The notes: generated by a model from the letters alone, not told the origin. A DNA stretch of 64,000 bases from Candidatus Latescibacterota bacterium (GCA_965248355.1 OZ252098.1:736001-800000); one strand, 5' to 3'. Numbered from the stretch's first letter, positions 17,517-38,436 are shown. Program-made: numbers and translations.

Positions 17517-17528
17517 ATAGCAGGCAGA

Positions 17529-20500
17529 ATGTCATCCGTTCTCTCGGACATGCTTCCCGGAGATTACCCCCGTAGGATCAAGAGCATCCGGGGCCTCCGC
17601 GGTCTGACGCAGGCGCAGTTCGCCGAACTCGTCGGCGTCTCCTTTGCCTCCGTCAACCGCTGGGAGAACGGACAGTCCCGCCCCAACAACCTGGCCTGGC
17701 GGCGCGTCGTCGAGTTGGAGAACCTGCCGGCAGACGGGGCGGACAAGCCCTCGGCCGACGAAGTACCCCAGTCCCCGAGCATGGACTTCTCAGCCGATCC
17801 CGAGGCGGTCTCCGCCGTCGCCGAGGCCCATCGCCTCGCCAGCGGCCACCTCTTCAACCCCGCCTTCGCCACCGAGACATCGCTGATCGACCCGCTCCCG
17901 CATCAGCGCATCGCCGTGTATCAGCGAATGCTCCAGCAGTCCCCCCTGCGATTCCTGCTGGCCGACGACGCCGGCGCCGGCAAGACCATCATGACCGGTC
18001 TGTACGTGCGCGAGATGCTGTCCCGCCGACTTCTGCGCCGCGTGCTCGTCGTGCCCCCGGCGGGCCTGGTCGGCAACTGGGAGCGGGAGATGCGCACCCT
18101 CTTCCGCCTGGCCTTCCGCATCGTGGGCGGGGCCGACGCGCGCGCCGGCAACCCCTTCCTCGGCCCCGAGAGCGACCTCGTCATCGTCAGCGTCGACACC
18201 CTGGCCGGGGAGCGCATGTTCGGCCACCTCAAGGATCCGCAGACCAACCCTTACGACCTCGTCGTCTTCGATGAGGCCCACAAGCTGTCCGCGGACCGCC
18301 AGCCCGACTTCCGGGTGCGCAAGACAGGCCGATACCGGCTGGCCGAGGCCCTGGCCTGCGCCCCGTCCGACGACAAGGACCGGTGGGAGCTGCCCTGGAC
18401 CGCGCAGCACCTGCTGCTGCTGACGGCCACTCCGCACATGGGCAAGGACCACCCCTACTACTACCTGTGGCGCCTGCTGCTGCCGGACGCCCTCTCCACC
18501 TTCGACGCCTTCGAGGAGTTCCCCCCGGACTCCCGGCAGCGGCACTTCATCCGCCGCACCAAGGAGGAGATGGTCCACTTCGACCGTCGGCCCCTCTACC
18601 CGCAGCGCAACTGCGACACCCTGAGCTACGAGTTGTCCCAGGGACCGGACGGCGAGCAGGAGCTGTACGACGAGACCACCGAGTACATGCGCTATCACTA
18701 CAACTGGGCCAAGGCGCTGAACCGTTCCGCCGCCCGCCTGGCCATGAGCGTCTTCCAGCGCCGCCTGGCCAGCTCCACCTATGCCCTCCTGCGCTCCTTC
18801 GAGCGCCGCCTCGAGAAGCTGGAGAGGCTCATCGACGACATCCGCAGCGGGCGCCTCACCGAGGAGCAGCTCGCGAGGCAGCAGCGACATCTGGGAAGGC
18901 TCGACGACTTCTTCGAGACGCGCACTCCCGACGAGGAGGCGGCCAGCGAGGACGGGGAACAGCACGAGGAGTTCGAATCCCGGGCCCTCGAAGGCACGGT
19001 GGCGGTCAACCTCGCGGAGCTGGAGGCGGAGCGTGTCAAGGTCGCCGGGTTGCTCGAGAAGGCCAAGAAGCTCTTTGACGCCGGCGAGGAGTCCAAGTTC
19101 GAGAAGCTGCGTGAGGTGCTCGCGGCGCCGCACTACCGCGACGAGAAGCTCATCATCTTCACCGAGCACCGGGATACGGCGGCATTCCTGGTCCGTCGCC
19201 TCGAAGGCCTCGGCTACACCGGCCGCGTCGCCCTGATCCACGGCGGCCTGGCCTACCCCGAGCGGGAGCGCCAGGTCGAGCTGTTCCGCCGGCCCGCCGA
19301 TCAGGGCGGGGCCAGCTATTTGGTGGCCACCGACGCCGCCGGCGAGGGGATCAACCTCCAGTTCTGCTGGCTCATGGTGAACTACGACATCCCCTGGAAC
19401 CCGGCCCGGCTGGAACAGCGCATGGGCCGCATCCACCGCTACGGCCAGAAGCACGATCCGGTGGTCATCGTCAACCTCGTGTCCGCCGGCACGCGCGAGG
19501 GCCGGGTGCTCAAGACGCTGCTCGACAAGCTCGAGGCGATCCGCCAACAGCTCAGCTCGGACAAGGTCTTCGACGTGGTGGGCCGTCTCTTCGAGGGGCT
19601 GTCCGTGCGGGACTACCTGGAGCAGGCGGTGACCGGTGAGGACGGCGGCCAGGCCGCAGCCAGTCAGATGGAAGGCCACCTCACCGAAGAGCAGGTCCTG
19701 GCCCTCGCGGCGAAAGAGCGCTCCCTCTACGGGGACGGCGGCGAGGTCCGCGGCCGGCTGGACGAACTCAACGAGGAGATGGAGCAGGAGAACTACCGCC
19801 GCCTGCTGCCCGGGTACGTGCGCCGTTTCGTCGAGAGATCAGCGCCGCTCCTCGACCTGCGCCTCGAAGGGGATCCGGGGGGCGCCTTCACCCTGGTCCC
19901 GGACCGGCCCCGCGCGGCCGATCCCCTGTTTCCGGCCCTCGAAGCCTACCCGGACGAGGCGAGGGAGCGGCTGACCGTGTACAAACCCGAGAGCCGCGAA
20001 GAAGCGATCTGGCTGCACCCCGGCGAGCCGGTCTTCGACAGCCTCTCGGCCTCGGTCCGGGAGCGTCTCGGGGCCGAAGGGCTTCGCGGCGCCGTGTTCA
20101 GCGACCCTTATGCCAGCGACGCGTACCTCTTCCACATCGCCCGGGTCAGCGTCCAGCAGCATCCTCCCGGGGATGGTCGCGCAGGGGATGGGCGCGGGGA
20201 GCCTGAAGGGGCCCCGCAACTGGTGGAGTCGCGCCTCGTCGGGCTGCGCCAGACCAGCGACGGCGCCGTGCAGGAGTGCCCCGTCGAGCACCTGCTCCTG
20301 CTGCGCGGAGCCGGCGGCATCGCCCCCGGCGGGGTGCCCCTGGCCACCCTGGCCCGCGGCATGGCCGGAGAGGCGGAAGATTTCCTCGAGGAGGAGGTGA
20401 ACGAGCAGATCGTGCAGACGCACCGCCAGCGCCGCTTGGACGATCTGCCCAGGCGCCTGGAGTTCGTCAACCGAGGCTTCGACTATCAGGCCGCGGAGCT

Positions 20501-21125
20501 GGCCGCCGCCCGGTCCAGTCTCAGGGAGAAGGCAGGTGCCGGGGACCGCCAGGCCGCCGAAGAGCTGGCCAAGGTCAGGGAACGGCAGCGAAGCCTCAAC
20601 GCCCAGCGCGCCCGCAGGCTCGCCGAGCTACGGGCCGAGGCGGACCTCATCCGGGCCGGGGAGGCCGAGTTCCTCGTGCACGCCCTGGTGGTGCCGGCCC
20701 AGGACGCCGGGGAGGTGGAGCGCTACGACGCCGATGTCGAGGCCATCGCCATGGCCGTGGCCGCCGGCTTCGAGGAAAGCCGGGGTGCCGAGGTGCGGGA
20801 CGTTTCCAAGCCCGAGCTGGCGAGGCGAGCCGGACTGCCTGACTGGCCGGGCTTCGACCTCCTGTCCCGGCGCGAGGGCATGGAACCGAGAGCCATAGAA
20901 GTCAAGGGACGGGCGGACACCGGCGGCGTAGAGTTGAGGGAGAACGAATGGGCCAAGGCCTGCAACCTGAGAGAGAGGTACTGGCTCTACGTCGTTTTCG
21001 ACTGCGCCACGCCCCGCCCCCGACTGGTGCGGGTGCGGGACCCCTTCGCCAAGCTGCTCGTTGGGGAACGAGAGTCCCGTGTCTTCGCCATCACGGCGGG
21101 GGCGGTAATGGCGGCGTCGGAATAG
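17529..21125 (+). CDS. XRE HTH + SNF2-family helicase + C-terminal DUF3883 (PD-(D/E)XK) nuclease
   Basis: LTQAQFAELVGVSFASVNRWENG; LLADDAGAGKT; DEAH; LLTATPH; QRMGRIHRYGQ; GFDLLS...IEVKG...NEW...YWLYVVFDC. Confidence 0.92.
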   Translation: MSSVLSDMLPGDYPRRIKSIRGLRGLTQAQFAELVGVSFASVNRWENGQSRPNNLAWRRVVELENLPADGADKPSADEVPQSPSMDFSADPEAVSAVAEAHRLASGHLFNPAFATETSLIDPLPHQRIAVYQRMLQQSPLRFLLADDAGAGKTIMTGLYVREMLSRRLLRRVLVVPPAGLVGNWEREMRTLFRLAFRIVGGADARAGNPFLGPESDLVIVSVDTLAGERMFGHLKDPQTNPYDLVVFDEAHKLSADRQPDFRVRKTGRYRLAEALACAPSDDKDRWELPWTAQHLLLLTATPHMGKDHPYYYLWRLLLPDALSTFDAFEEFPPDSRQRHFIRRTKEEMVHFDRRPLYPQRNCDTLSYELSQGPDGEQELYDETTEYMRYHYNWAKALNRSAARLAMSVFQRRLASSTYALLRSFERRLEKLERLIDDIRSGRLTEEQLARQQRHLGRLDDFFETRTPDEEAASEDGEQHEEFESRALEGTVAVNLAELEAERVKVAGLLEKAKKLFDAGEESKFEKLREVLAAPHYRDEKLIIFTEHRDTAAFLVRRLEGLGYTGRVALIHGGLAYPERERQVELFRRPADQGGASYLVATDAAGEGINLQFCWLMVNYDIPWNPARLEQRMGRIHRYGQKHDPVVIVNLVSAGTREGRVLKTLLDKLEAIRQQLSSDKVFDVVGRLFEGLSVRDYLEQAVTGEDGGQAAASQMEGHLTEEQVLALAAKERSLYGDGGEVRGRLDELNEEMEQENYRRLLPGYVRRFVERSAPLLDLRLEGDPGGAFTLVPDRPRAADPLFPALEAYPDEARERLTVYKPESREEAIWLHPGEPVFDSLSASVRERLGAEGLRGAVFSDPYASDAYLFHIARVSVQQHPPGDGRAGDGRGEPEGAPQLVESRLVGLRQTSDGAVQECPVEHLLLLRGAGGIAPGGVPLATLARGMAGEAEDFLEEEVNEQIVQTHRQRRLDDLPRRLEFVNRGFDYQAAELAAARSSLREKAGAGDRQAAEELAKVRERQRSLNAQRARRLAELRAEADLIRAGEAEFLVHALVVPAQDAGEVERYDADVEAIAMAVAAGFEESRGAEVRDVSKPELARRAGLPDWPGFDLLSRREGMEPRAIEVKGRADTGGVELRENEWAKACNLRERYWLYVVFDCATPRPRLVRVRDPFAKLLVGERESRVFAITAGAVMAASE

Positions 21126-21165
21126 CGCAGGCCAACCTCCTGGACCACTCGATGGAGAGCCCACC

Positions 21166-22476
21166 ATGCTGAAACGAATCCATATCCAAGGATACAAGTC
21201 TCTCGAGGACGTCGAAGTAAGCCTGTGCCCGCTCGTGGTTCTGTTCGGGCCAAACGCCGCCGGCAAGAGCAATTTGCTCGATGCCCTGCAACTGCTGTCG
21301 AAGCTGGGGACGAGCCGTACCCTGAAGGAAGCTTTCGATCCACCCTATCGCGGCAAGCCCCTCGAATCCTTCACCATCGGGAGCAAGGGAATCAAGGGCC
21401 TGCTCGAGCAGGACAGGCTTTCTTTTTCGATCGAGGCCGACTTGAGCCTCTCGGATGCGGTCGTCGAGGCTGTCAACCGACAAATACGAGAGATGCGCCG
21501 TCCACACGGGGAGGTCGGGTCTGAAGGGGAAGTCAAGGCTCCTACTCGAGTCCGCGAGCGGGAACTCCGCTATCGGATCGAAGTGGAGATGCTGCCCAGA
21601 TCCGGCATTCTGCGGGTAGCGGATGAATACCTGGCCGCCTTGAACAGCAAGGGTGAACCCACGGGAAAACGCAAACCCTTCTTTGAGCGGCAGGGAGAGA
21701 GGATCCATCTTCGGCATGAGGGCCAGGCGCATCCGACCTATTTCGACCGTTCCCTCGACCACAGCATCCTCTCCATGCCGCACTATCCGCCGCACTATCC
21801 GCATCTGGTGGCGGCTCGTCACGAGCTGGAGAGTTGGCTGTTCTTCTACTTCGAGCCCCGCGAACGCATGCGCGCCTCGAACCCGGTCAAGGAGGTTCGC
21901 CATATCGGCATGATGGGCGAAGAATTGGCGGCCTTCCTCAATACCATGAAGGCAACCGATGCCCGGAGGTTCAGGGGAGTCGAGAAGGCTCTGCATACCC
22001 TGATGCCGAACATCGATGGAATCGAGGTCGAGGTAAGTGATCTCGGCGAGGTTGAGATCCGTCTCAAGGAGGGTGGGGTGGCCATTCCCGCCCGTGTGCT
22101 CTCCGAAGGCACTCTGAGGATGCTTGGCCTCCTCGCTCTTACAGGGGTAGACGAAGGTCCGGCCCTGCTGGGGTTCGAGGAGCCGGAGAACGGAGTCCAC
22201 CCGCGGCGAATTGAGTTGATCGCCGAGTTGCTGAGGACCCAGGAGAGCCTGAACCAGATCCAGCATATCATCACCACACACTCCCCGATCCTGCCTGATC
22301 TGCTGGACGACGAGTCGCTGTTCGCCGTTCGCCGGCTGAACGGCCAGACTCACATAGATCCGTTTTCGACCTGGGGCCCGCTGAAGCGAAAGCAGGACAT
22401 CCGCCAAGCCTTCGCCGATGAGGAAGAGCGCCTGCCGGTTTCGGCGCGCATAATGAGAGGCGACTTCGATGCGTGA
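21166..22476 (+). CDS. ABC-type (AAA_21/AAA_15) ATPase no. 1
   Basis: Walker A GPNAAGKS, signature LSEGTLR, Walker B/D-loop FEEPENGVHP, H-loop TTHSP. Confidence 0.9.
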   Translation: MLKRIHIQGYKSLEDVEVSLCPLVVLFGPNAAGKSNLLDALQLLSKLGTSRTLKEAFDPPYRGKPLESFTIGSKGIKGLLEQDRLSFSIEADLSLSDAVVEAVNRQIREMRRPHGEVGSEGEVKAPTRVRERELRYRIEVEMLPRSGILRVADEYLAALNSKGEPTGKRKPFFERQGERIHLRHEGQAHPTYFDRSLDHSILSMPHYPPHYPHLVAARHELESWLFFYFEPRERMRASNPVKEVRHIGMMGEELAAFLNTMKATDARRFRGVEKALHTLMPNIDGIEVEVSDLGEVEIRLKEGGVAIPARVLSEGTLRMLGLLALTGVDEGPALLGFEEPENGVHPRRIELIAELLRTQESLNQIQHIITTHSPILPDLLDDESLFAVRRLNGQTHIDPFSTWGPLKRKQDIRQAFADEEERLPVSARIMRGDFDA

Positions 22477-23050
22477 GGTCGCCCTCTTCGTCGAGGACTA
22501 CGCACATCGGCAGGTCATCGGCGCTTTGGTTGAAAGGATAGCGGGGGACTGCTGTATCGGTGTACGACTCGATTGGAGGAATGCGGTAGGAGGCCACGGC
22601 AAAGTCGTCACGGAGCTTGAAGATTACATGCGAAACCTGTTGGCACAAGGCGGCCCCTTTCCCGATCTGGTAGTCGTTGCTACCGACGCGAACTGCAGGG
22701 GGTTGAACGATCGGCTTCAAGAGATCGGAGCGTGGGATATCCCAGCGCCCGTGATCCTGGCCGTACCCGATCCGCACATCGAACGCTGGCTGCTGCTCGA
22801 TGGAGCAGCCTTCAAGGCAGTCTTCGGCAAGGGGTGTGACGCCCCCGACCAGAAGTGCGACCGGAGGCGGTACAAGGAGCAGCTGATCAAGGCCATCCAT
22901 GCCACCGGAACCGTACCCCGGCTCGGAGGCATGGAATACGCCGAGGACATTGTGCAGGAGATGGATATCGAGCGCGTCGCCCAGCTGGACAGGTCCTTCA
23001 GGCGTTTCGTCACGGCTTTGCGAAACAGGTTCGGAGGCTGGCAATCATGA
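22469..23050 (+). CDS. TOPRIM-like partner protein no. 1 (DUF4276-like)
   Basis: LFVED at the N-terminus, ATDAN, IERWLLLD; overlaps the ATPase 1 stop. Confidence 0.7.
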   Translation: MREVALFVEDYAHRQVIGALVERIAGDCCIGVRLDWRNAVGGHGKVVTELEDYMRNLLAQGGPFPDLVVVATDANCRGLNDRLQEIGAWDIPAPVILAVPDPHIERWLLLDGAAFKAVFGKGCDAPDQKCDRRRYKEQLIKAIHATGTVPRLGGMEYAEDIVQEMDIERVAQLDRSFRRFVTALRNRFGGWQS

Positions 23051-26000
23051 TTTCCGAGGACAAACGCCTCATCGAAGTCGCCTTCCCTCTGAAGCAGGTC
23101 TCCCTCGACTCCGTGCACGAGAAGAACGTGCGCCATGGCCACATCTCCACGCTGCATATCTGGCCCGCGCGCAGGCCGCTGGCGGCCTGCCGGGCGGCCC
23201 TGATCGCCACGCTGCTGCCCGACCCGGGCAATCCCGAGGAGCGCAAGGCGATTCTTGAACGCATGGCCGGGCGGATCATCGGGAGGCCCGAGCGCAAGCG
23301 CGTGAACGGCCGCGTGGTCGAGCGGGTCAAGGAGGAGACGGAGGGCGGTATCCTCCACTGGGGCCGGGAGAGAGAGCCGGATCTGGAATGGTTCCGTGCC
23401 GAGATCCGCAAAGCCTACGGCGGCAGGGCGCCCAAGGTGCTCGACCCCTTTGCGGGCGGCGGCGCGATTCCCCTCGAAGCGATGCGCCTGGGGTGCGAGG
23501 TGACGGCCATGGACATCAACCCGGTGTCCTGGTTCATCCTCAAGTGCACCCTGGAGTACCCCCAGAGGCTGGCCGGCCAGACCCGGCCGCTGCCCGGGTT
23601 CGCGCTGCAGGACCGGGAATTCATGCAGGCCTTCCTGAAGGCCAAGGGCTTCAAGGGCACCCGGCTGCGGAGTCTGCTGGATCGCCTTGGACACGGCGAC
23701 GGCAGCGACGTGCAGCTCGACGCTCTTCCCAGTGGGGACCGAATTGCCGATGCGGATCTCGCCTGGCACGTGCGCGCCTGGGGCCGGTGGGTGCTGGCGA
23801 GGGCGCGCAAGGAGCTGGCCTCCTGCTACCCGACCTATGCCGAGTTCGAGGCGCTGAAGCCGGGCGGGGACTTCGAGCCCCGGCGCATGCGGCTGCTGGA
23901 GGTCGACGACGCGGGCGCGCCCCAGGTCGATCCCCTCAACGCCGAATTCGACGAGGACTATCTGAAGAACCAGCACAACCCGCGCTGGGTCGCCAAGCTG
24001 GCGGTGGCCTATCTCTGGGCGCGGACCGTGGCCTGCAAGCAGTGCCGGGCCGAACTGCCCCTGTTGAAGACCCGCTGGCTGTGCAGGAAGGACCGCAAGC
24101 GGGTGCTGCTGACCATGGAGCCGAAGGCCGACCGGAGCGGCGTGGTCTTCGGCGTGCAGAGCGATGTGCCGCAGAACGGAGGCAACGGGGCGCAACGGCG
24201 GGAGCACGACCGGAGCCTTGGCGCGGGTACCATGTCGCGTACGGGTGCGGCCTGCCCTTGCTGCGCCGCCATCGCGACCATGGAGGACATCCGCTTGGAG
24301 GGTCGGGCGGGACGGTTGGGTGCGGTGATGACGGCCGTGGTCGTGGACGGACAGAATGGGAAGGAATACCGCCTGCCTAGGGACCATGAGCGGGCGGTGG
24401 CGGAGGTGACCGAGGAACGGCTGCAGGCGCTCTATGCGGAGATACCGTTCGGGTTGCCGGAGGAGCCTTTGCCACGCAGAGGAGCTCTGGGGTTCCGTGT
24501 TCCGTTGTATGGCTTCGACACGTGGCGGAAGCTGTTTACGAACCGGCAGCTGCTGGCCCTTGGGGAATTCGTTCGGAGCCTTCGAAGCCTGATGAAGGAA
24601 CTCGACGACTGGCCTGAGGATTGGCGCGAGGCCGTGATCGCGAATCTCGCGCTCGTCAACGACCGGCTAGCTGACTACTCCAGTTCGATCTGTTCCTGGA
24701 TCAATGGCGGCGAGATTCTTGGACACACCTTTGCACGCTTTGCACTTCCGATCATCTGGGACTACGCCGAGGTAAATCCGCTATCCAATTCATCTGGCAA
24801 CTTCATCGGGGCAGTTGAATGGGTTTCACGTTTCGGCGTACATGTTCAGGGAGCCGTTCAATCAGCGGAGGCGGCACGGGTACGGGGCCTCAGTGCAACA
24901 GAGGTGTCGGGCAAGTACGATGTGATCCTCACGGATCCGCCGTACTACGACGCCATCCCCTACTCCGATCTGATGGACTTCTTCCATGTGTGGATACGAA
25001 GGGCCACACAAGGCCTTCGCCACGAGTTGGACGTTGCCTTTCGCGACCCTCTGGGCCCCAAGTGGGACCACGCGAGCGGCGACGGGGAGCTCATAGACGA
25101 CGCTGGCAGATTCGGCGGCGACAAGGAGCGCTCCAAGCAGAACTACGAAGACGGCATGGCTCGCTCGTTCCGCTCGTGTAATGCTGCCTTGCGGCCGGAC
25201 GGGCGGCTCGTGGTCGTGTTTGCGAACAAGAATCCCGACGCTTGGGAGACTCTGGTCGCAGCGCTGATTCGGGCTGGCTTCGTCGTCAACGGCTCCTGGC
25301 CTATCCAGACAGAGAGAACTGCCAGGACTCGATCGATGGCTTCGGCTGCTCTCGCCTCTTCCGTATGGATCGTCTGCAAGAAGCGGTCCGCCTCCCGCCC
25401 CGGCTGGGACAACAAGGTCCTCGACGAAATGCGCGAGAACATCACCCGGCAGCTCCACGACTTCTGGGACGCCGGCATCCGCGGCCCCGACTTCGTGTGG
25501 GCCGCTACCGGACCGGCCCTCGAAGCCTTCAGCAAGTATCCCGTGGTCAAGAAGGCGAATTCCCCGGGCGAGCAGATGTCCGTTTCCGAGTTCCTGCGTC
25601 ACGTGCGCCGCATGGTCGTCGATTTCGTGGTCGGGCGAGTTCTGATCCCGGACGACGCCGCACCGACGGCGGATGGGCAGGAGGCTGAGACCGGCCTCGA
25701 CGACGTCACCACCTACTACCTGCTCCACCGCAATGACTTCGGCATGGGGGAGGCACCGGTCGGCGGCTGCATCCTCTACGCCCTGTCCTGCAACCTCTCC
25801 GACTCCGCCCTGGTCAACCAGCACGACCTCCTGACCCAGGCGGGCAAGCGGGGAGCCGTGGACGAAGACGATGAGGAGGAGGACGCGCCCGAAGAGGCCG
25901 AGGAGACGGGCGGCGGCGCCAAGGTGAAGTTGAAGCCTTGGCAGCGGAGGAAGGGCCGCAACCTCGGCTTGGAGGGGCAGGGGGGACGGCCAGCGCCCCT

Positions 26001-26271
26001 CATCGACCAGGTGCACAAGCTCATGCATCTCTGGCGCGCCGGGGACCAGGTGAAGGTGAACGAATACCTCGACACCCGCGGCCTGCCCCGCAGTGCCCTG
26101 TTCAACCAGATCCTCCAGGCGCTCATCGAGCTGGCCGCCGAAGGCTCGGAGGAGCGCTCGCTCCTGGAGTCGGTGAGCAACCACGCGGCCGGCCGCGGGG
26201 GAGTGCAGGCACGGAGGCAGAGGCAGTTTCAGTTCGAAAGAGCTGAGCCCGGACCGGAGGAAATCCGATGA
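23047..26271 (+). CDS. DUF1156 adenine-specific DNA methyltransferase with Zn ribbon
   Basis: LHIWPARRPLAACRA (DUF1156), VLDPFAGGGAIPLEA (motif I), CKQC/CPCC, ILTDPPYYDAIPYSDL (motif IV). Confidence 0.92.
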   Translation: MISEDKRLIEVAFPLKQVSLDSVHEKNVRHGHISTLHIWPARRPLAACRAALIATLLPDPGNPEERKAILERMAGRIIGRPERKRVNGRVVERVKEETEGGILHWGREREPDLEWFRAEIRKAYGGRAPKVLDPFAGGGAIPLEAMRLGCEVTAMDINPVSWFILKCTLEYPQRLAGQTRPLPGFALQDREFMQAFLKAKGFKGTRLRSLLDRLGHGDGSDVQLDALPSGDRIADADLAWHVRAWGRWVLARARKELASCYPTYAEFEALKPGGDFEPRRMRLLEVDDAGAPQVDPLNAEFDEDYLKNQHNPRWVAKLAVAYLWARTVACKQCRAELPLLKTRWLCRKDRKRVLLTMEPKADRSGVVFGVQSDVPQNGGNGAQRREHDRSLGAGTMSRTGAACPCCAAIATMEDIRLEGRAGRLGAVMTAVVVDGQNGKEYRLPRDHERAVAEVTEERLQALYAEIPFGLPEEPLPRRGALGFRVPLYGFDTWRKLFTNRQLLALGEFVRSLRSLMKELDDWPEDWREAVIANLALVNDRLADYSSSICSWINGGEILGHTFARFALPIIWDYAEVNPLSNSSGNFIGAVEWVSRFGVHVQGAVQSAEAARVRGLSATEVSGKYDVILTDPPYYDAIPYSDLMDFFHVWIRRATQGLRHELDVAFRDPLGPKWDHASGDGELIDDAGRFGGDKERSKQNYEDGMARSFRSCNAALRPDGRLVVVFANKNPDAWETLVAALIRAGFVVNGSWPIQTERTARTRSMASAALASSVWIVCKKRSASRPGWDNKVLDEMRENITRQLHDFWDAGIRGPDFVWAATGPALEAFSKYPVVKKANSPGEQMSVSEFLRHVRRMVVDFVVGRVLIPDDAAPTADGQEAETGLDDVTTYYLLHRNDFGMGEAPVGGCILYALSCNLSDSALVNQHDLLTQAGKRGAVDEDDEEEDAPEEAEETGGGAKVKLKPWQRRKGRNLGLEGQGGRPAPLIDQVHKLMHLWRAGDQVKVNEYLDTRGLPRSALFNQILQALIELAAEGSEERSLLESVSNHAAGRGGVQARRQRQFQFERAEPGPEEIR

Positions 26272-27566: not shown

Positions 27567-28135
27567 ACGTCCTTATCATCCCCGAAGATTTCCGCAATGA
27601 TCAGTACATCCTGAAGCCTCTCTTCTCGCGGTTCTTTCGATCTATTGGGAAGTCTCGTGTGCGTGTCAGAGTCTGCCGTGATCCTCTGCTTGGCGGCTAC
27701 GTGGAAGCGTTAAGGTCAGAGCGTATCGCGGAGGTCGTCAGAAGGCATTGGGGAATGACGGATGTCTTCGTCCTTATCATAGATCGTGACGGGGACAGGA
27801 ATCGGCGCCAGAGTCTCGATCGCCTCGAAGAGCAATTTGGCTGCGAGCAGATCTTCCTGGGGGAGAATGCCTGGGAGGAGATCGAAACCTGGGTCCTCGC
27901 GGGCCTGGACTTGCCGGGTGATTGGAGCTGGGCGGAGGTCCGCTCGGAGATCCACGTGAAGGAAGAGTACTTCGACCGGCTTGTCGTCGAACGCGGCTTG
28001 TCAGACGCGCCCGGCGGTGGCCGTAAGCCTCTGGGAGAAGAGGCATCGCGCCGGATCGATGCGATCCGACAGAAGTGCCCCGAGGACTTCGATGCACTTG
28101 CCAAGCGTCTGGGGACCGCTGCCGGCGTCACATGA
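27563..28135 (+). CDS. TOPRIM-like partner protein no. 2
   Basis: IIPED, IIDRDGD (DxD), EIETWVLA; GTGA overlap with ATPase 2. Confidence 0.7.
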   Translation: MNVLIIPEDFRNDQYILKPLFSRFFRSIGKSRVRVRVCRDPLLGGYVEALRSERIAEVVRRHWGMTDVFVLIIDRDGDRNRRQSLDRLEEQFGCEQIFLGENAWEEIETWVLAGLDLPGDWSWAEVRSEIHVKEEYFDRLVVERGLSDAPGGGRKPLGEEASRRIDAIRQKCPEDFDALAKRLGTAAGVT

Positions 28136-28147
28136 GGAGAGCATCAA

Positions 28148-28458
28148 GTGCTTGATCAGAACACCCTGGATGACATCATCCGGCGCATCGTGGAGGTCGC
28201 GCAGCCGGAGCGCATCGTCCTCTTCGGGTCCGCCACCGGGGCGTCATGACACGGAACAGCGATGTGGATCTTCTCATCATCAAGGAGGGGGGGGACGCGA
28301 ATCTCAGGACCCGGATCTACGAGAAGCTGTACGGCGTTCCCGTCGCGGTCGATGCGATCCTGGTTTCGCCGGCGGACGTAGAGCGCTACAAGGACAGCCA
28401 TGCGTTGGTCATCAAGCCGGCGCTGGAGGAGGGAAGGGTGGTCTATGAGTCCACCTGA
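28148..28458 (+). pseudogene. Minimal nucleotidyltransferase (MNT) antitoxin, frameshifted
   Basis: VLDQNTLDDIIRRIVEVAQPERIVLFGSA, frame break near 28236, then MTRNSDVDLLII...ALEEGRVVYE (the GS...DxD motif is split). Confidence 0.8.
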
Positions 28459-28585
28459 GCGGTTTCCGCGGGATGATCCGCGCTGTCCAGGCCTTGACCG
28501 GCCGGTGTCCGAAGAGGCGCACCAGGATGCGACAGAGATCGCTCAGGCTGTAATCCAGTGGGCGGAGGAGCGGCTGCCAAGATGA
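28445..28585 (+). pseudogene. HEPN toxin remnant with large in-frame internal deletion
   Basis: MSPPERFPRDDPR joined directly to CPGLDRPVSEEAHQDATEIAQAVIQWAEERL, i.e. the N- and C-termini of a HEPN protein. Confidence 0.65.
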
Positions 28586-29865
28586 TCACATTGGTCGAAG
28601 CCTTGAATTATCGATGCCTCCGGTACGTCTCGAGGCCGCTCGGTCCGTTCCACGTCCTCGTTGGGCCGAACGCTTCCGGCAAGACGACCTTTCTCGATGT
28701 CGTCGGCTTTTTTCGGGACCTGATGTCGGAAGGGCTGGATGAGGCGGTCTCGAGCCGGACCAGGAATCCGAAGGACCTCCTCTTCTTGCGTTTGGGCGAC
28801 AGGTTTGAGTTGGCCCTCGAGGCACGTATCCCCGATGAATTGCGTGAGCGGACGGCGAGACCGGAGCTGGACACGGCTCGGTATGAGGTCGCGGTCGGTT
28901 TCGACGAAACGCAGCGCCAGTTCGAGCTGAAGGCCGAGAAGTTCCTGCTCAAGGGAAGGCAGGAGGTGGAACTACCACCGCGCTCCCTGTTTCCCATGTC
29001 TTCCCGCCCACCCGATTCCCTGCTGCGGCCTGAGGGACTTGGGGATAGAATGGTCGTTTCCAATAGAGCACCGCATGAGGGACTGCAGAATGATATGGTG
29101 CTTTACGGGGAGACCGAGGATACCGAGGGGCAGGGTTTCAACCTCTGGTTCAAACTCGGAGCGAGGAACTCGGGGCTCGGCAATCTCCCGGAGGACACGA
29201 ACTCCTTTCCTGTTGGAGTGTGGTTCCGCGAACTACTGGGCACGGGTGTGCAGCAGTTCGTCCTCAACAGCTTGGCCATCAGAAAACCGAGCCCGCCGAT
29301 CCGGGTCACGGGGTTTTCCCCCGACGGATCGAATCTGCCCTGGGTCGTGGACCGTCTGAGGCAGGAGAATGGGGCCAGGTTCCAGGACTGGATGAACCAC
29401 CTGCGAACGGTGCTCCCGGATCTGGAGGAGATCTCGACGGTTGAACGCCCGGAGGACAGGCATTGCTACATGGTCTACGAGTACCATGGCGGGCTGAAAG
29501 TCCCTTCCTGGCTGGTATCCGACGGCACCCTCCGGCTGACAGCGCTGACCCTTCCCGCCTACCTGGAGGATCTCCAAGGGATCTTCCTGGTCGAGGAGCC
29601 CGAGAACGGGATCCATCCAGGCGCCGTAGCCGCCGTGCATGACTCCCTTTCCTCCATCTATGGTGCTCAGGTTCTGCTGGCGACTCATTCTCCGCTGCTA
29701 TTGAACGCCGCTGGATCGGGTGACGTGCTGTGCTTTGCCAAGGCTGACAGGGGAGCGACCGACATCGTGCTGGGTACCGAACATCCCATGCTCCAACAGT
29801 GGCGTGGAGACGTCAATCTCGGCACGCTGCTCGCGTCGGGGATTCTGGGGGGACTGAAGAAATGA
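28582..29865 (+). CDS. ABC-type (AAA_21) ATPase no. 3 (resembles MADS MAD3-type ATPases), no adjacent partner gene
   Basis: MITLVEALNYRCLRY, GPNASGKTT, VSDGTLRL, LVEEPENGIHP, ATHSP. Confidence 0.88.
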   Translation: MITLVEALNYRCLRYVSRPLGPFHVLVGPNASGKTTFLDVVGFFRDLMSEGLDEAVSSRTRNPKDLLFLRLGDRFELALEARIPDELRERTARPELDTARYEVAVGFDETQRQFELKAEKFLLKGRQEVELPPRSLFPMSSRPPDSLLRPEGLGDRMVVSNRAPHEGLQNDMVLYGETEDTEGQGFNLWFKLGARNSGLGNLPEDTNSFPVGVWFRELLGTGVQQFVLNSLAIRKPSPPIRVTGFSPDGSNLPWVVDRLRQENGARFQDWMNHLRTVLPDLEEISTVERPEDRHCYMVYEYHGGLKVPSWLVSDGTLRLTALTLPAYLEDLQGIFLVEEPENGIHPGAVAAVHDSLSSIYGAQVLLATHSPLLLNAAGSGDVLCFAKADRGATDIVLGTEHPMLQQWRGDVNLGTLLASGILGGLKK

Positions 29866-31184
29866 CCAAGATAGAGGGGTTTCGAGTAAGAAACTTTAAG
29901 CTGCTCAAGGATGTGACATTGGGCCGCTTGTGGAACCAGCGGGAGGAGCGGCCTCTCACTCCCATGACGGCGGTAATCGGCAGGAACGGAGTAGGGAAGA
30001 GTGTTCTCTTCGATGCATTCGGATTCCTCGCCGACGCCTTGAGACTCGGTGTCGAAGAGGCTTGCGACGCCCGCGGTCGCGGCGGCTTCGAGAAGCTGCG
30101 GACCCAGGGAGAGACGGGGCCTATCGAGTTCGAGGTGTACTATCGGGAACATGGCAACGCCCGGCCGATAACCTATGAGATCGCCATTGAAGCAGACGAG
30201 TCGGGGCGTCCCTGCGTGTCGCGGGAGCGTCTCAGGCAGAGAAGGAGAAACCAGAGCTATGGTCGACCGTTCTCGTTCCTGTGGCTGAATGACGGCCGGG
30301 GTGTGGCATGGAAGGGAGAGGAGGGGTACGAAGCGAAGGACATCCACATGAGGGGCTTGGTGGACGAAGCAATCGCGGAAGAGGATATCGAGAAGAAGCG
30401 ATCGAAGGTGGAAGAGCTGATAAGGCTGATCAGGGAGGAGGAGCCCAACGAGACCGAACAGATCGAGTTGGAGGACCCCCACAGGCTTGGCATTGCTACG
30501 GTTGGCGCCTTGAAGCAACATCCGAGAATCTCCGCATTCCGCCGCTTTATCGAAGGATGGTACCTGAGTTACTTCACTCCGGCCGCGGCTCGCAGCTTGC
30601 CCTTGGCCGGCCCTCAGAAGCATCTGAATATCCAGGGTGACAATCTCGGCAACGTCGTGCAATTCCTGGAGCGCGAACATCCGCAACGTTTCAAGGCCGT
30701 CCTGAAGGAGATTGCCGGAAGGATTCCGGGCATAAACGAAATCGACACGGAACCAACCAGTGACGGCAGGCTGCTCCTGCGGTTCAACGACAGGAGCTTT
30801 CAGGATCCCTTCTATGCCCAGGAAGTATCCGATGGAACGCTGAAAGTATTCGCCTACCTGCTGCTGCTCGAAGATCCGGATCCGGCCCCGTTTCTCTGCA
30901 TCGAGGAGCCGGAGAACGGCCTCTATCACAAGCTCCTGGAGACCTTGGCCAACGAATTCCGGGAACATGCGAGCGGAAGCAAAGGCTCGCAGGTCTTCGT
31001 TACGACCCACCAGCCGTATTTCGTGGACGCACTCTCCCCGGAGGAGGTCTGGATCCTGGAGAAGGGTGAGGATGGTTTTTCAAAGATTCGACGAGCCAGC
31101 GACGATCCAACTGTGAACAACATGGTCGAGGAAGGATTGCCGTTGGGCGGTCTTTGGTTCAGCGAGTACCTCGACGCGAGGTGA
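29862..31184 (+). CDS. ABC-type (AAA_21) ATPase no. 4
   Basis: GRNGVGKS, VSDGTLKV, CIEEPENGLYH, TTHQP; ATGA overlap with ATPase 3. Confidence 0.9.
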   Translation: MTKIEGFRVRNFKLLKDVTLGRLWNQREERPLTPMTAVIGRNGVGKSVLFDAFGFLADALRLGVEEACDARGRGGFEKLRTQGETGPIEFEVYYREHGNARPITYEIAIEADESGRPCVSRERLRQRRRNQSYGRPFSFLWLNDGRGVAWKGEEGYEAKDIHMRGLVDEAIAEEDIEKKRSKVEELIRLIREEEPNETEQIELEDPHRLGIATVGALKQHPRISAFRRFIEGWYLSYFTPAAARSLPLAGPQKHLNIQGDNLGNVVQFLEREHPQRFKAVLKEIAGRIPGINEIDTEPTSDGRLLLRFNDRSFQDPFYAQEVSDGTLKVFAYLLLLEDPDPAPFLCIEEPENGLYHKLLETLANEFREHASGSKGSQVFVTTHQPYFVDALSPEEVWILEKGEDGFSKIRRASDDPTVNNMVEEGLPLGGLWFSEYLDAR

Positions 31185-31189
31185 TCAGA

Positions 31190-31855
31190 GTGCACTTCGA
31201 GATCCTTGTCGAAGATATTTCGGGCAAGCGAGCGCTGGAGATCCTGGTTCCGAAGATCGTGGACGACCAGCACACCTTCCGGGTTCATGCGTACAGAGGA
31301 GTCGGGCGCATTCCAAGGGGGTTGACGCGTGGAACTGAGGCAAAGTGGCGCTTCCTGCTCGACCAGCTTCCGAGGTTGCTCGGGGGATATGGGAGGACAT
31401 TTGCCGGGTATCCCGCCAACTACCGCGCCGTGGTGATCGTGGTCTGCGACCTGGATGACAGGTGCCGGAGAGCCTTCCGTCGCGAGCTCCTGGAAGTCCT
31501 GGAGGACTGTAGCCCGAGACCGGAGACCCGCTTCTGCATCGCCATAGAAGAGGGGGAGGCCTGGCTGCTGGGCGACCTTCCCGCGATCAAGGCAGCCTAT
31601 CCGCAGGCCAGGGAGGACGTCCTCAAGCGTTACAGGAACGACTCGATTTGCGGAACCTGGGAATGTCTCGCGGACGCCGTCTTCAGGGGCGGATCGAGTG
31701 TGCTGAAAGGGAAGGGGTGGTGGGCAGTGGGCGGGCAAAAGTCAGCATGGGCGGAGAGAATCGTCCCGGAGATGGACGTCGAAAACAACGCGTCGCCCAG
31801 TTTTCGGTACTTCAAGGAGAAGATCATGGAGCTTGCCAAGGAGCGGACGACATGA
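31190..31855 (+). CDS. DUF4276-family TOPRIM-like partner protein no. 3
   Basis: HFEILVEDISG, VCDLDD, IEEGEAWLLGD, NASPSF; alternative GTG start at 31181 overlaps the ATPase 4 stop. Confidence 0.8.
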   Translation: MHFEILVEDISGKRALEILVPKIVDDQHTFRVHAYRGVGRIPRGLTRGTEAKWRFLLDQLPRLLGGYGRTFAGYPANYRAVVIVVCDLDDRCRRAFRRELLEVLEDCSPRPETRFCIAIEEGEAWLLGDLPAIKAAYPQAREDVLKRYRNDSICGTWECLADAVFRGGSSVLKGKGWWAVGGQKSAWAERIVPEMDVENNASPSFRYFKEKIMELAKERTT

Positions 31856-34800
31856 CAACCAAGACATCCCGGAAGCCCTGGCACGAGGTGGTGCAACTGC
31901 GCGACGACCTGAAGACGGGGGAGCTGTCCCTGGCTGTCTTCGCCGCTGACCTCTACGACGTGGTCATGCAGAGGGGGCAGCGGCCGGTGTACGAGCAGCC
32001 CGCCGAGTTCTTCGCCCTCACCTTTCCCACCCTGAACCTTCGGGAGCTGGTCAAGGATGTCTGCCACCGCCTCGCCGGCCGCAGCGACAAGGCGTACCGG
32101 AAGCTCTCCGTCAACTACGGCGGCGGCAAGACCCACACGCTCATCGCCCTCCGGCACCTGGTTCACGACCCGGCGGCCCTGCCCGCCCTGCCGGCGGTGC
32201 AGGAGTTCGAGGCCCACATCGGGTTCAAGCCGCCGAAGGCCCGCGTCGTGGCCCTCTGCTTCGACAAGATCGATCTGGAGAGGGGCGTCGAGACACCGGG
32301 GCCGGATGGCGAGGTCAGGATGCTCAAGCACCCGTGGAGCATCCTCGCCTTCCAGCTGGCGGGATCCGATGGCCTGCGGCTTATCCACGCCAGCGGCGAG
32401 GACGCTGAGCGCGACACCCCGCCGGCGGAGCCGCTGGTGGCTGAGCTGCTATCCAGGCCGCAGAGGGACGGTCTCTCGACGCTCGTGCTCCTCGACGAGG
32501 TACTGATGTATCTGCGGGTCCTGGCCGAGACCTCCGGGGAGTCACGGGGACGCTTGGTCAGCTTTTTCCAATACCTCACCCAGGCCGTGGTCAAGGTGGA
32601 CCGCTGCGCCATGGTGGCCTCGCTCCTCGCCTCCGACCCGAGGAGGGACGACGACCTCGGCACCGCGCTGCGCGACGTATCCGACATCTTCGGCCGCCAG
32701 ATGGAGGAGGACGCCAGCCCGGTGAGCAAGGAGGACGTGGCCGAGGTCCTGCGGCGCCGCTTCTTCACGCCCGAGTCGATTCGCGATCAGAGCGTCTTCC
32801 GCCCGCATGTGGCTTCGGCGGTGGGCAGTATCGCCGCCCTCGACGACCAGACCGGGAAGGAGCGGGCCATCGCCGAGGAGCGGTACCTGAACAGCTATCC
32901 CTTCCACCCGGATCTCACGGAGGTCTTCTACACCCGCTGGACCCAGCTCGACGGCTTCCAGCGCACCCGTGGCATCCTGCGCACCTTCGCCATCGCCTTG
33001 CGCGATGCCGCCGGATGGGACACCAGTCCGCTCGTGGGACCCAACGTCTTCCTGCGCGAGCCGGGAAAGGATGGCCTGGCCGAAGCGGCGTCCGAGCTCG
33101 CTTCCATTGCCAGCGTCGACACGGATACCGGCCGGCCCCAGGAGTGGCGGCCCATTCTGGAAGGAGAGCTGGAAAAGGCGCGTATGATCCAGGACGAGGC
33201 GGCCGGTCTGGCACACCGGGAAACGGAGCAGGCCGTGGTCTCGGTCTTCCTTAGTTCGCAGCCCATCGGCCAGAAGGCGCAGACCCGGGAGCTGATGGTG
33301 CTGCTCGGAGCAGGGCATCCGGACAGGATCGAGTTGGAGAAGGCCCTGCGCCGCTGGACGGAGCAGTCCTGGTTCCTGGACGAGGCGGAGATCGCCACCG
33401 GTGAAACCGGCTCGGAGGGGGAACTGCCGAGGGCGTGGCGGCTGGGCAACCGCCCCAACCTGCGCCAGATGCACCACGAGGCCTGCAGCAACCGGGTGCC
33501 GTCCACACTCGTGGAATCGCAGCTCATCGACGCCATCGACAAGGAGAAGGCCCTCACCTCGGGCGCCTCCGCGGCCGGCGCCAAGGTGCACAACCTGCCG
33601 GAGAGGCCGAGCGATATCGGCGACGACGGCGACTTCCACTACGCCGTTCTCGGGCCGCAGTCGGCCTCCGAGTCCGGGAAGCCGAGCGCTCTGGCCAAGC
33701 GCTTCATCGAGGAGAGGACCTCCCGGGACCATCCCCGGGTCTTCCGCAACGCCGTCGTACTGGCCGTTCCGGCCCGGGACGGTCTCGACGCGCTGCGCAC
33801 GCGTGTCCGGGAGTACCTCGGCTGGGTCGAGGTCCGCGAGCAGCTCAAGGATCAGCCCATCGATCCGCTCCGCGAGCAGATGCTCGCCACCGAGACGGAG
33901 GCCGCGAGGAGGCGCATCCCGGAGGCCGTGCGCCAGGCGTACTCCGTGGTCGTCACCGTCGACGAGAACAACATCGTTCACGCCTTCAAGGTCGTAGTCA
34001 CCGGAGAGCCTCTGTTCACGATCATCAAGGCGGACCAGCGGGCGCGTATCCAGGAGACCGCCGTCAGCTCGGAGGCGATGGTGCCGGGCGGCCCCTACGA
34101 CTTGTGGCGCGAGGGGGAAGATTCCCGCCGCGTCAAGGATCTGGTGGGCGCCTTCGCGCAGTTCCCGAAGCTGCCCAAGATGCTGCGGCCGAAAGAGGTT
34201 CTGGACACGGTCGTTCACGGAGTTCGGCAAGGGACCTGGGTTGCTCGGCTCGTGCGGCCGGATCGCACCGCCCGGACCTTCTGGCGCACGGAGGTGGACG
34301 AGACGGCCCTGCAGGACCCGGCCCTGGAGGTGCTGCTTCCCGAAGCGGCCGAGTTGAGTGGGATCGCCCCGGACCTCCTCGTGCACGAGAAGCTCCCCGG
34401 GCTGTGGCCGTCTGAGGAGATCGGTGTGCAGGACGTGTTCGACTACTTCGCGGGCGGACACACCGTGAGCCTGCCGCGGGAGGGGTATGAGGAGACTCTG
34501 CAAATCCCGAAATGCGACCCGGCCCACGTGGAGGCCGCCATCTCCCAGGCCGTCGAGCAGGGGTTGGTGTGGCTGACGAGCGGACCGGCCTCGATCCTCG
34601 ACGAGCCCGTGCCGGCGGGAGTCTTGAGCGGCGCGGGGAAACTCAGGCCGCCGCCGGAACGGATCGAGGTTGCCGAGTTGGCGGCCGACTCGATCCCCGA
34701 CGCCTGGAAGGACGGCAAGGCCAACGCCCTCGCCCTTGCCACCGCCCTCTCTGCCAAACGGGACGTCAGTCTGCCCTGGACAACGGTGCGGTCGGCCATC

Positions 34801-35166
34801 GGATCGGCCATCCGGGCGCGCTGGATCGCGCTGACCCCGGACAGCGCGGAATGGCCGTGTGACCTGGCCGGCGCCCAACATGTGATCTTCGAGGTCCCAG
34901 CCGGCGAGGCTCGGGACAAGGACGAACCCCTCTACAGGCCTGGAAGCGGGTCCCGAAGCGTGCCCAGCGCCGAAGCGGTCCTGGAAGCCGACCGGATCCA
35001 GGACCTGGCCGAGCAACTCCCGGAGCTGCTGAAGGCGGCCGTCGGCAACGATGTCAGGTTCACGGTCCGCATCGAAGTGGGGGGAGAGAGCGCGCCCAGC
35101 CCGGAGGCGGTGGCCAAGATCAACGATCTGCTTGCCGAGGTGTCCGAGGAGTTGCGGCTGGAGTAG
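31852..35166 (+). CDS. DUF499 AAA+ ATPase
   Basis: KPWHEVVQLRDD, FAADL, NYGGGKTHTL (Walker A), LLDEVLMY (Walker B), SYPFHP, FQRTRGILR. Confidence 0.92.
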   Translation: MTTKTSRKPWHEVVQLRDDLKTGELSLAVFAADLYDVVMQRGQRPVYEQPAEFFALTFPTLNLRELVKDVCHRLAGRSDKAYRKLSVNYGGGKTHTLIALRHLVHDPAALPALPAVQEFEAHIGFKPPKARVVALCFDKIDLERGVETPGPDGEVRMLKHPWSILAFQLAGSDGLRLIHASGEDAERDTPPAEPLVAELLSRPQRDGLSTLVLLDEVLMYLRVLAETSGESRGRLVSFFQYLTQAVVKVDRCAMVASLLASDPRRDDDLGTALRDVSDIFGRQMEEDASPVSKEDVAEVLRRRFFTPESIRDQSVFRPHVASAVGSIAALDDQTGKERAIAEERYLNSYPFHPDLTEVFYTRWTQLDGFQRTRGILRTFAIALRDAAGWDTSPLVGPNVFLREPGKDGLAEAASELASIASVDTDTGRPQEWRPILEGELEKARMIQDEAAGLAHRETEQAVVSVFLSSQPIGQKAQTRELMVLLGAGHPDRIELEKALRRWTEQSWFLDEAEIATGETGSEGELPRAWRLGNRPNLRQMHHEACSNRVPSTLVESQLIDAIDKEKALTSGASAAGAKVHNLPERPSDIGDDGDFHYAVLGPQSASESGKPSALAKRFIEERTSRDHPRVFRNAVVLAVPARDGLDALRTRVREYLGWVEVREQLKDQPIDPLREQMLATETEAARRRIPEAVRQAYSVVVTVDENNIVHAFKVVVTGEPLFTIIKADQRARIQETAVSSEAMVPGGPYDLWREGEDSRRVKDLVGAFAQFPKLPKMLRPKEVLDTVVHGVRQGTWVARLVRPDRTARTFWRTEVDETALQDPALEVLLPEAAELSGIAPDLLVHEKLPGLWPSEEIGVQDVFDYFAGGHTVSLPREGYEETLQIPKCDPAHVEAAISQAVEQGLVWLTSGPASILDEPVPAGVLSGAGKLRPPPERIEVAELAADSIPDAWKDGKANALALATALSAKRDVSLPWTTVRSAIGSAIRARWIALTPDSAEWPCDLAGAQHVIFEVPAGEARDKDEPLYRPGSGSRSVPSAEAVLEADRIQDLAEQLPELLKAAVGNDVRFTVRIEVGGESAPSPEAVAKINDLLAEVSEELRLE

Positions 35167-35277
35167 GCAGCCGGCGCGTCGCCACGCAGCCGGCTCGACC
35201 AGTGAGCCAACCGGCGGGTCACGGACGCCGGGATTGCCTCCCTCTCCGGGAGTCCACGCCCCAAGCAAGCCTCCCCC

Positions 35278-38429: not shown

Positions 38430-38436
38430 CAAGGTC

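Follow-up and report, generated by a model that had tools for sequence, protein, structure and literature searches.

Layout and guest cassettes of a probable Hma-type restriction-like operon in a Candidatus Latescibacterota genome

The operon and its core genes

The window analysed here is a 64,000-nucleotide stretch from Candidatus Latescibacterota bacterium (GCA_965248355.1 OZ252098.1:736001-800000), and all positions are counted from its first letter. The locus at 17529-35166 on the + strand (17.6 kb) comprises 10 intact co-directional genes and two gene relics, and is very probably a single Hma (Type-1 BREX-related) restriction-like operon, with guest defence cassettes lacking promoters in the two slots between its core genes. 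These core genes, hmaA, hmaB and hmaC, share one strand and follow the canonical A-B-C order downstream of a single promoter-like site. Between hmaA and hmaB, slot 1 contains ATPase1 and TOPRIM1, and slot 2 (hmaB to hmaC) contains five intact genes and two relics, namely ATPase2 and TOPRIM2, a dead MNT-HEPN pair, an orphan ATPase3, and ATPase4 and TOPRIM3. The Hma system (HmaA/HmaB/HmaC) is reportedly attributable to Payne et al. 2021. The features, with protein lengths in amino acids (aa), are as follows.

17459-17493, +: promoter-like site, TTGACA-18-TACACT (10/12), overlapping TTCACG-16-TATGAT; followed by an AGGAGGA ribosome-binding site and then the ATG at 17529
17529-21125, +: hmaA, 1198 aa; Xre-type helix-turn-helix (HTH), SNF2/DEAH helicase and C-terminal NOV_C (DUF3883) PD-(D/E)xK-like nuclease domain
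21166-22476, +: ATPase1, 436 aa; OLD-type ABC ATPase, HEC-01A-like (AAA_21 103.5 bits, PADLOC HEC-01A 189 bits)
22469-23050, +: TOPRIM1, 193 aa; small DUF4276-like partner (PADLOC HEC-01B weak, 19 bits)
23047-26271, +: hmaB, 1074 aa; DUF1156 N6-type DNA methyltransferase
26268-27566, +: ATPase2, 432 aa; OLD-type ABC ATPase, PDC-M07A-like (PADLOC PDC-M07A 185 bits, AAA_21 109 bits)
27563-28135, +: TOPRIM2, 190 aa; conserved partner of ATPase2, TOPRIM-like by motifs and context only
28148-28458, +: MNT, nucleotidyltransferase antitoxin-type gene, frameshifted (frames 28148-28249 and 28246-28458, break near 28235-28249)
28445-28585, +: HEPN relic, 46-aa stub without about 95 internal residues
28582-29865, +: ATPase3, 427 aa; MAD3-family ABC ATPase without a MAD4 partner
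29862-31184, +: ATPase4, 440 aa; HEC-01A ABC ATPase (PADLOC PDLC04182 631.9 bits, AAA_21 153.9 bits)
31181-31855, +: TOPRIM3, 224 aa; HEC-01B/DUF4276-like partner (PADLOC PDLC04205 303 bits)
31852-35166, +: hmaC, 1104 aa; DUF499 (BrxC-like AAA+) ATPase

No internal stop was present in any of the 10 intact reading frames. Neighbouring genes overlap by 4-14 bp at 9/12 junctions, including an 8-bp overlap of ATPase1 with TOPRIM1 (22469/22476) and 4-bp ATGA/GTGA overlaps at 23047, 26268, 27563, 28582, 29862, 31181 and 31852; gaps of 40 bp and 12 bp separate hmaA from ATPase1 and TOPRIM2 from MNT. An initial annotation, made from the sequence alone, had listed junction overlaps that all proved real when their coordinates were checked; its 12 co-directional reading frames do lie on one strand, but their number resolves into the 10 genes and two relics given above. 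It had also proposed one near-consensus promoter. When 19 kb (16800-35800) was scanned on both strands, two mutually overlapping sigma-70-like matches were obtained, both at 17459-17493. The site is well placed, with the AGGAGGA box between it and the hmaA ATG, but it is not statistically remarkable, because shuffled sequences average 1.7 matches per region. Terminator-like matches numbered seven, versus 10.9 expected from shuffles, and none was found at a gene junction in the scan of the operon region. This layout suggests that 17529-35166 is co-transcribed. The 200-280 bp 5' of hmaA are kept with the operon, blastn homology starting at 17330 with the related genome G124 and at 17247 with G006. 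Just 5' of the promoter-like site, 17108-17458 is non-coding or decayed; its translation resembles ankyrin-repeat fragments (DVDAQDAKGRTSLFLAS..., KGKTPLDVAAKG), and no Pfam match was obtained there at E<=0.001.

HmaA matched the PADLOC HmaA model at 532.4 bits over residues 84-1157 and carries the Pfam domains HTH_3, SNF2-rel_dom, Helicase_C and NOV_C, with DEAH at residue 248 and D...EVK at 1104-1126. HmaB matched its PADLOC model at 392.9 bits (Pfam DUF1156, 67.7 bits) and has intact DPFAGGG (S-adenosylmethionine-binding) and DPPY motifs at 133 and 630; it also gave a weak PADLOC mad2 match of 35 bits. HmaC matched at 245.5 bits (Pfam DUF499, 58.8 bits). The locus and Hma share the same three core genes, their order, strand and domains, including the C-terminal restriction endonuclease-like nuclease of the helicase, and both are without DUF3780 or PLD. 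Nothing essential differs, HmaA here having an N-terminal Xre-type HTH that lies outside the PADLOC model match (from residue 84). The domain calls of the initial annotation were right for every gene (Pfam, PADLOC, NCBIfam). It had also considered that existing models might match the whole arrangement, and this is largely the case, since PADLOC models name 9/10 intact genes.

Other identities for the helicase (DISARM, BREX type 2-3, Dpd, Zorya) were tried with NCBIfam and rejected for want of an equivalog-level match: DrmD of DISARM scored 323.8 bits against a cut-off of 610, DpdE of Dpd 150.8 bits against 500, and ZorD of Zorya 45.5 bits against 1500. The DUF3780/PLD restriction-like system was rejected as well, its NCBIfam equivalogs scoring far under their cut-offs (170/1000, 86/1200 and 141/1100); no DUF3780 or PLD/HKD domain was found in the operon, as had been noted from the sequence. 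The restriction-like system of Gao et al. (Type-2 BR) has homologous DUF499 ATPase and DUF1156 methylase genes. Hma itself has been renamed a Type-1 DUF499-centred BREX-related system (PMC12839542), and the nickase activity of the HmaA nuclease domain is reported to be essential for defence against T4 (PMC11232893).

A second, divergent Hma-like operon is present in the same genome, about 1.93 Mb past the end of the window (G000:C1:2726000-2745999, locus L018). Its HmaC-like protein is 32% identical, and the guests between its hmaB-like and hmaC-like genes are a PDC-M38A ATPase, a 452-aa unknown, a SIR2-APAZ-like gene and a HEC-01 A/B pair.

Guest genes of the two slots

All four guest ATPases matched AAA_21 (102-154 bits), and Walker A (GPNAAGKS in ATPase1), signature, Walker B and H-loop are present in each. 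Pairwise identity among them is only 23-28%, and they therefore probably answer to different triggers. Three complete pairs of an OLD-type ABC ATPase and a small TOPRIM-like protein can be recognized: ATPase1/TOPRIM1, ATPase2/TOPRIM2 and ATPase4/TOPRIM3. Membership of HEC-01 is clear for ATPase4/TOPRIM3 and weaker for ATPase1/TOPRIM1 (189 and 19 bits). ATPase2 matches PDC-M07A, though TOPRIM2 gave no PDC-M07B match at E<=0.001; a reference PDC-M07A/B pair in G006 scored 334 and 117 bits. A DUF4276-like profile, built as a small alignment of TOPRIM1, TOPRIM3 and their orthologues, matched MAD4 with an hhalign probability of 84.7%. Elsewhere in this genome PF13304 (AAA_21) matches reach 69 in total, many of the partial ones being ordinary ABC transporters, and near full-length AAA_21 occurs at about nine places outside the operon, for example near 1.89, 2.74, 2.95, 3.05, 3.98 and 4.32 Mb.

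TOPRIM2 is the one partner without a family model, as no match was obtained in Pfam, PADLOC or NCBIfam. At E<=0.001 the family numbers 2,555 homologues; all of the 120 listed share at least 67% identity with it, the best up to 85%, and among the matches listed the few named ones come from Gemmatimonadetes records and none has a precomputed Pfam domain. Identities of 68-85% are seen across distant phyla, and strong constraint is therefore implied. The invariant residues include E8-D9 and D74-R75-D76, and against the DUF4276-like profile TOPRIM2 aligned with its E-D, D-x-D and E-x-W motifs in register (hhalign probability 32.7%, E 4.6e-4). Its comparison with MAD4 was not significant (hhalign probability 0.6%), and its profile gave 0 matches against PDB sequences. 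An AlphaFold2 model of TOPRIM2 (pLDDT 86, pTM 0.83) found no PDB match at E<=0.001 with Foldseek, and complex prediction for ATPase2 with TOPRIM2 gave a score of 0.25 against a mark of 0.32, which decides neither way. TOPRIM2 belongs to a widespread, very conserved family of 190-aa partners that is named in none of the three databases.

ATPase3 exceeds the equivalog cut-off of the NCBIfam model antiphage_MADS3 (NF047739; 457.4 bits against 420). No MAD4 match at E<=0.001 was obtained with NCBIfam for any of the three small proteins, and no MADS family besides MAD3, including MAD6, MAD7 and MAD8, was matched among 11 proteins. MADS was rejected as the identity of the locus on this pattern of MAD3 only. 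Homologues of ATPase3 at E<=1e-40 occur in 61/168 genomes of the phylum. Nineteen loci were examined for pairing, of which the 11 in + orientation were mapped and the eight in - orientation were left out; in 8/11 an open reading frame (ORF) of 209-258 aa directly follows the ATPase3 homologue, and the four such ORFs tested are MAD4 equivalogs (195-227 bits). These sequences suggest that MAD3 is normally paired with MAD4. Some MAD3-MAD4 pairs stand alone beside housekeeping genes (prenyltransferase, cytochrome oxidase subunit III). No structure of MAD3 or MAD4 was found by sequence in PDB.

MAD3 alone is reported to have no ATPase activity and MAD4 alone to be insoluble, and their 2:2 heterotetramer to act as an ATPase and to cleave DNA (PMC13662399). 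MADS defence is lost when either mad3 or mad4 is deleted, and MAD6, MAD7 and MAD8 are mandatory in the authors' model (PMC13662399; bioRxiv 10.1101/2023.03.30.534895). In the window the start of ATPase4 adjoins the stop of ATPase3, and the position of MAD4 is taken by a HEC-01 pair. With ATPase4 and TOPRIM3 in the place of MAD4, ATPase3, intact in sequence, would be left without a nuclease partner and is most likely inert.

The remaining occupant of slot 2 had been called an MNT-HEPN relic, and this call was correct. MNT is split between two frames, the second piece giving a weak Pfam Polbeta match, and the 46-aa HEPN stub has no Pfam HEPN match. An intact pair in the related genome G156 consists of a 131-aa MNT (NTP_transf_2/Polbeta) and a 157-aa HEPN (Pfam HEPN, 93.8 bits). 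An extra C at 28235, the frameshift site in a G/C run, was found in contigs of four other runs, so that the MNT break is either lineage-specific or an error of assembly; the HEPN deletion does not depend on which of these holds.

Orthologous operons and exchange of cassettes

HmaC orthologues of 74-87% identity were found in 6/40 related genomes, plus one at 56%, and up to 20 kb upstream of each was mapped with phmmer, PADLOC, NCBIfam and Pfam. Among these relatives the slot contents differ, as listed below, but the core genes are conserved. The tabulation of inserts that had been proposed as a check on the initial annotation thus returned varied cassettes in both slots.

G006 (same genus), slot 1: 8.6 kb with two unnamed ATPase-like genes, PDC-M07A/B, an ATPase1 orthologue, and a CBASS cyclase with a 2TM effector
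G006, slot 2: SIR2-APAZ-like gene
G036, slot 1: 124-aa and 1215-aa unknowns, then ATPase1/TOPRIM1
G036, slot 2: ATPase2/TOPRIM2
G040: slot 1, TIR-APAZ and short prokaryotic Argonaute (SPARTA-like); slot 2, a 699-aa gene, then ATPase4/TOPRIM3
G035: slot 1, 6.3 kb; slot 2, empty
G026: slot 1, PDC-S01; slot 2, empty
G124: slot 1 includes ATPase1; slot 2, ATPase2, TOPRIM2, ATPase3 (frameshifted) and MAD4
G156, slot 2: ATPase3, MAD4, MNT, HEPN, ATPase2, TOPRIM2

In G156 neither hmaB nor hmaA was found within 10 kb upstream, and the sequence fetched for G019 and G034 did not contain recognizable upstream core genes. A protein of 1215-1219 aa occupies slot 1 of two related Hma operons (L014:7534-11181, L013:11602-15261); neither copy gave a PADLOC match, and the L014 copy gave no Pfam match either.

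By blastn, hmaA, ATPase1, hmaB and hmaC are 88-92% identical between the window and G124 at the DNA level, and 29849-31845 has no match in G124, the window having ATPase4 and TOPRIM3 where G124 has MAD4 (NCBIfam, 195 bits). At the left junction of this swap the ATPase3 frame extends four codons into sequence that forms the ATPase4 leader in G040, and at the right junction the shared sequence restarts in the ribosome-binding region of hmaC. Both junctions preserve open reading frames and coupling. As judged from these alignments, an ATPase4 and TOPRIM3 cassette has replaced MAD4 exactly at the gene boundaries.

The four-ATPase stack could in principle be an assembly chimera of a metagenome-derived genome, which we regard as extremely improbable. 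The genome is apparently metagenome-assembled, a single contig that is 95.7% complete with 4.18% contamination, and the MNT frameshift falls in the G/C run where contigs of four other runs have the extra C. Against a chimera, the gene order is shared with G124 for about 13 kb (hmaA through ATPase3) at 77-92% DNA identity, and of the words sampled from 21100-31000 a fraction of 0.97-0.98 is present in the four runs, which may however be the source sample. The contigs of these runs are short, none spanning the stretch; they include a joint from 28573 to 29847 that would skip ATPase3, listed without side lengths, and one from 23242 to 29611 with 21-letter sides, neither of which is taken as evidence. 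The preserved frames and coupling at both swap junctions also speak against it.

Ribosome-binding sites and stop/start overlaps are retained at the guest junctions. ATPase2 has a ribosome-binding site of its own and a 5' end that is nearly identical in the window, G124 and G036, and no second genomic copy of this conserved 5' end was found beyond a 35-nt match. Integron-like or other boundary repeats were not found; the repeat search gave only coding repeats of Walker A/B in the paralogous ATPases. These few junctions suggest that the cassettes lack promoters and move as units, through illegitimate exchange at the borders of genes. Because the guests have lower G+C content at third codon positions (GC3) and because orthologous operons carry different cassettes, the cassettes appear to be later arrivals: GC3 is 0.66-0.75 for guests, 0.81-0.90 for hma genes and 0.91-0.98 for flanking genes, and the G+C content of the window, about 70%, dips to 0.58-0.66 at 20-32 kb. 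A bolder view, for which we see little likelihood, is that in this clade the Hma operon works as an integrase-less cassette platform, with promoterless units of ribosome-binding site, ATPase and nuclease swapped precisely leader-to-stop and stacked in slot 2, and with ATPase3 retained through co-option. If that were true, ATPase3 would pair with the heterologous TOPRIM3 or signal to Hma itself, and ATPase3-ATPase4-TOPRIM3 would be a three-gene unit of two sensors and one nuclease.

For a wider sample, a profile of 40 HmaB sequences was used to collect 63 loci from many phyla with 10-kb flanks, 37 of which had hmaA, hmaB and hmaC. A slot larger than 600 bp was present in 27/37 complete loci (24 in slot 1, 17 in slot 2) and absent from 10/37. 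The sample is biased against large slots because loci with hmaA or hmaC beyond 10 kb drop out. Pfam was run on 81/101 slot ORFs of at least 100 aa, the 20 left out being mostly the shortest. Guests included TIR, SMODS/SAVED/Cap15, GmrSD_N, UvrD with a zeta-like kinase, AbiJ, PIN with RHH, YhcG nuclease, Schlafen with a ParA-like protein, and C5 methylase with GHKL. Two AAA_21 ATPases were found in five complete loci, one in six and none in 26. Four in one operon is the highest number seen, G124 having three and the 37 complete loci at most two. In a Caldilineaceae metagenome-assembled genome (L085:13249-16364), two ATPase genes lie in slot 2, one ATPase2-like and one ATPase4-like, neither with a TOPRIM-like partner; the ORF called for the second of these overlaps the hmaC ORF at its start.

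These comparisons bear on whether the ATPase/TOPRIM pairs are guests at all. They could instead be working subunits of one enlarged methylation-dependent multi-nuclease restriction complex, as MAD3 and MAD4 are in MADS, where the loss of either gene abolishes defence. Such a role would fit the equivalog status of ATPase3 and the 4-bp overlaps, which translationally couple guests to core genes. We nevertheless consider it quite unlikely, as cassettes are present, absent or swapped among orthologous operons with 74-92% identical core genes, 10/37 complete Hma loci have no slot above 600 bp, MAD3-MAD4 pairs also occur standalone beside housekeeping genes, and no other MADS protein family was matched.

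Decay raises a different doubt, namely that the slots are a genomic sink in which most guests are passengers without current function, riding inside a selected operon. Besides the frameshifted MNT, the internally deleted HEPN and the orphan MAD3, this would account for the frameshift of ATPase3 in G124, the loss of the ATPase1 3' end in G124 and G006 (where TOPRIM1 was not found with the TOPRIM1 query), the two partnerless ATPases of the Caldilineaceae locus, and a guest block that diverges faster than the hma genes. It is unlikely to hold for most of the guests, since seven guest genes are full-length, with all ATPase motifs and conserved acidic motifs kept, TOPRIM2 is under the constraint implied by its identity to proteins of distant phyla, and the junctions retain their ribosome-binding sites and stop/start overlaps.

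Proposed function and relation to published systems

Under the preferred reading of an Hma operon with guest defence cassettes, the following scheme is proposed by analogy. From published knowledge of the families, HmaB would mark host DNA by methylation, and incoming DNA without the mark would be recognised and nicked or cut by HmaC and HmaA. Each ATPase/TOPRIM pair may form a complex like the MAD3-MAD4 2:2 heterotetramer. In it, sensing would fall to the ATPase, with phage anti-restriction proteins as a possible signal, as in PARIS, and the TOPRIM-like protein would act as the nuclease. The guest pairs would then give abortive or second-line defence once Hma is evaded.

Several points weigh against this interpretation. 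The independence of the guests is an assumption, because mad3 and mad4 are required parts of MADS and not independent back-ups. TOPRIM1 and TOPRIM3 each scored 26.7 bits with Pfam DUF4276, under the cut-off of 30.2. For TOPRIM2 the top structural neighbours by VIA-align were Argonaute MID domains (Z 8-10, about 116-142 residues aligned), the best being 6t5t_A (Z 10.0, root-mean-square deviation (rmsd) 2.9, 116 aligned), and the C-terminal Toprim region of OLD (6nk8_B; Z 6.5, rmsd 4.6, 158 aligned) ranked below them. Both are Rossmann-like folds, and the likeness to MID may reflect that shared arrangement only. The initial call of TOPRIM2 stands as far as motifs and context go, and TOPRIM2 is TOPRIM-like in that sense, but at this level of profile similarity, and with Argonaute MID ranked first, it is not demonstrably a TOPRIM. 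The block from ATPase2 to ATPase3 is only 77% identical to G124 by blastn, which we cannot explain further than by faster change or allele exchange. In published work, a HEC-01 representative gave no protection from the phages tried in E. coli (bioRxiv 10.1101/2024.01.29.577857). For T4, Liu et al. observed no effect that depended on HmaB, and they report that 15-20% of hmaA homologues have no hmaB and hmaC next to them (PMC11232893).

The general arrangement has been described before. Embedded genes were reported in 931/1,485 Hma systems, with up to three per gap counted and 96.7% of them co-oriented; ABC ATPases are the commonest embedded family and HEC-01 (Hma-embedded candidate), an ABC ATPase with a TOPRIM, is the commonest guest (bioRxiv 10.1101/2024.01.29.577857). 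Insertions were likewise reported in about 66.5% of hma systems, and in every hma locus of Halomonas the interval from hmaB to hmaC contains an AAA_21 gene with an unannotated gene (PMC11232893). OLD-ABC and TOPRIM back-ups of BREX-related systems were counted in at least 1,242 taxa (PMC12839542). The pairs described here are nested and co-oriented between hma genes in the same manner as HEC-01, which ATPase4/TOPRIM3 match at 632/303 bits. The HEC-01 survey allowed no more than three embedded genes between two hma genes, whereas slot 2 here has five intact ones and two relics.

Among related designs, the split ATPase and Toprim-like nuclease of MADS is the likely model for all the pairs, and ATPase3 is a MAD3 equivalog; the locus differs from MADS in having neither MAD4 nor other mad genes, with a HEC-01 pair in the MAD4 slot. 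In PARIS (AriA/AriB), an OLD-type ABC ATPase sensor and a TOPRIM nuclease already serve as a back-up triggered by anti-restriction proteins, but PARIS is distant in sequence, the AriA model matches of 100-140 bits covering the generic ATPase core only. PrrC nested in EcoprrI is a precedent for a guest inside a restriction operon.

The locus belongs to a kind of system already known, whose layout it exemplifies richly, and it adds no new principle. The initial annotation had taken the composite to be undescribed, which does not hold for Hma with embedded ATPase and TOPRIM genes; no description of a four-ATPase Hma operon was found in the literature searched, although the supplementary tables of bioRxiv 10.1101/2024.01.29.577857 may list multi-cassette loci. 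Its hypothesis of a methylation-based first line with co-transcribed abortive-infection back-ups has been published before for this architecture; the same survey discusses back-up systems that anti-defence proteins would trigger (bioRxiv 10.1101/2024.01.29.577857). The points of interest are local: the record number of ATPase modules, the exact replacement of MAD4 by HEC-01 that orphans MAD3, and the unannotated TOPRIM2 family. With three divergent complete pairs, a naturally orphaned MAD3, and relatives showing cassette gains, losses and one exact swap, the locus offers a compact natural test bed for a question raised in the literature: whether guests embedded in Hma are independent, serve as back-ups that respond to anti-restriction proteins, or form part of the host system.

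Around the operon, Pfam analysis of 21 ORFs showed the flanking genes to be metabolic (lactonase, DUF6785, solute-binding protein/permease, Rieske, amidohydrolase). A 764-aa ORF at 36138-38432 on the - strand carries a solute-binding protein domain (SBP_bac_1) and an ABC permease domain (BPD_transp_1), through either gene fusion or the calling of two genes as a single one. A second low-G+C stretch at 50000-60000 (0.59-0.64) contains DUF4838, NHL-repeat, sulfotransferase, WD40 beta-propeller and PhyH genes; Pfam showed no defence family there, PADLOC not having been run on that stretch. An ATPase gene with AAA_14 and DUF4143 lies at 14848-15999, 1.5 kb upstream of the operon, and the same domain pair is a slot 1 guest of an Hma locus from Acidobacteria (L054:8450-9979).

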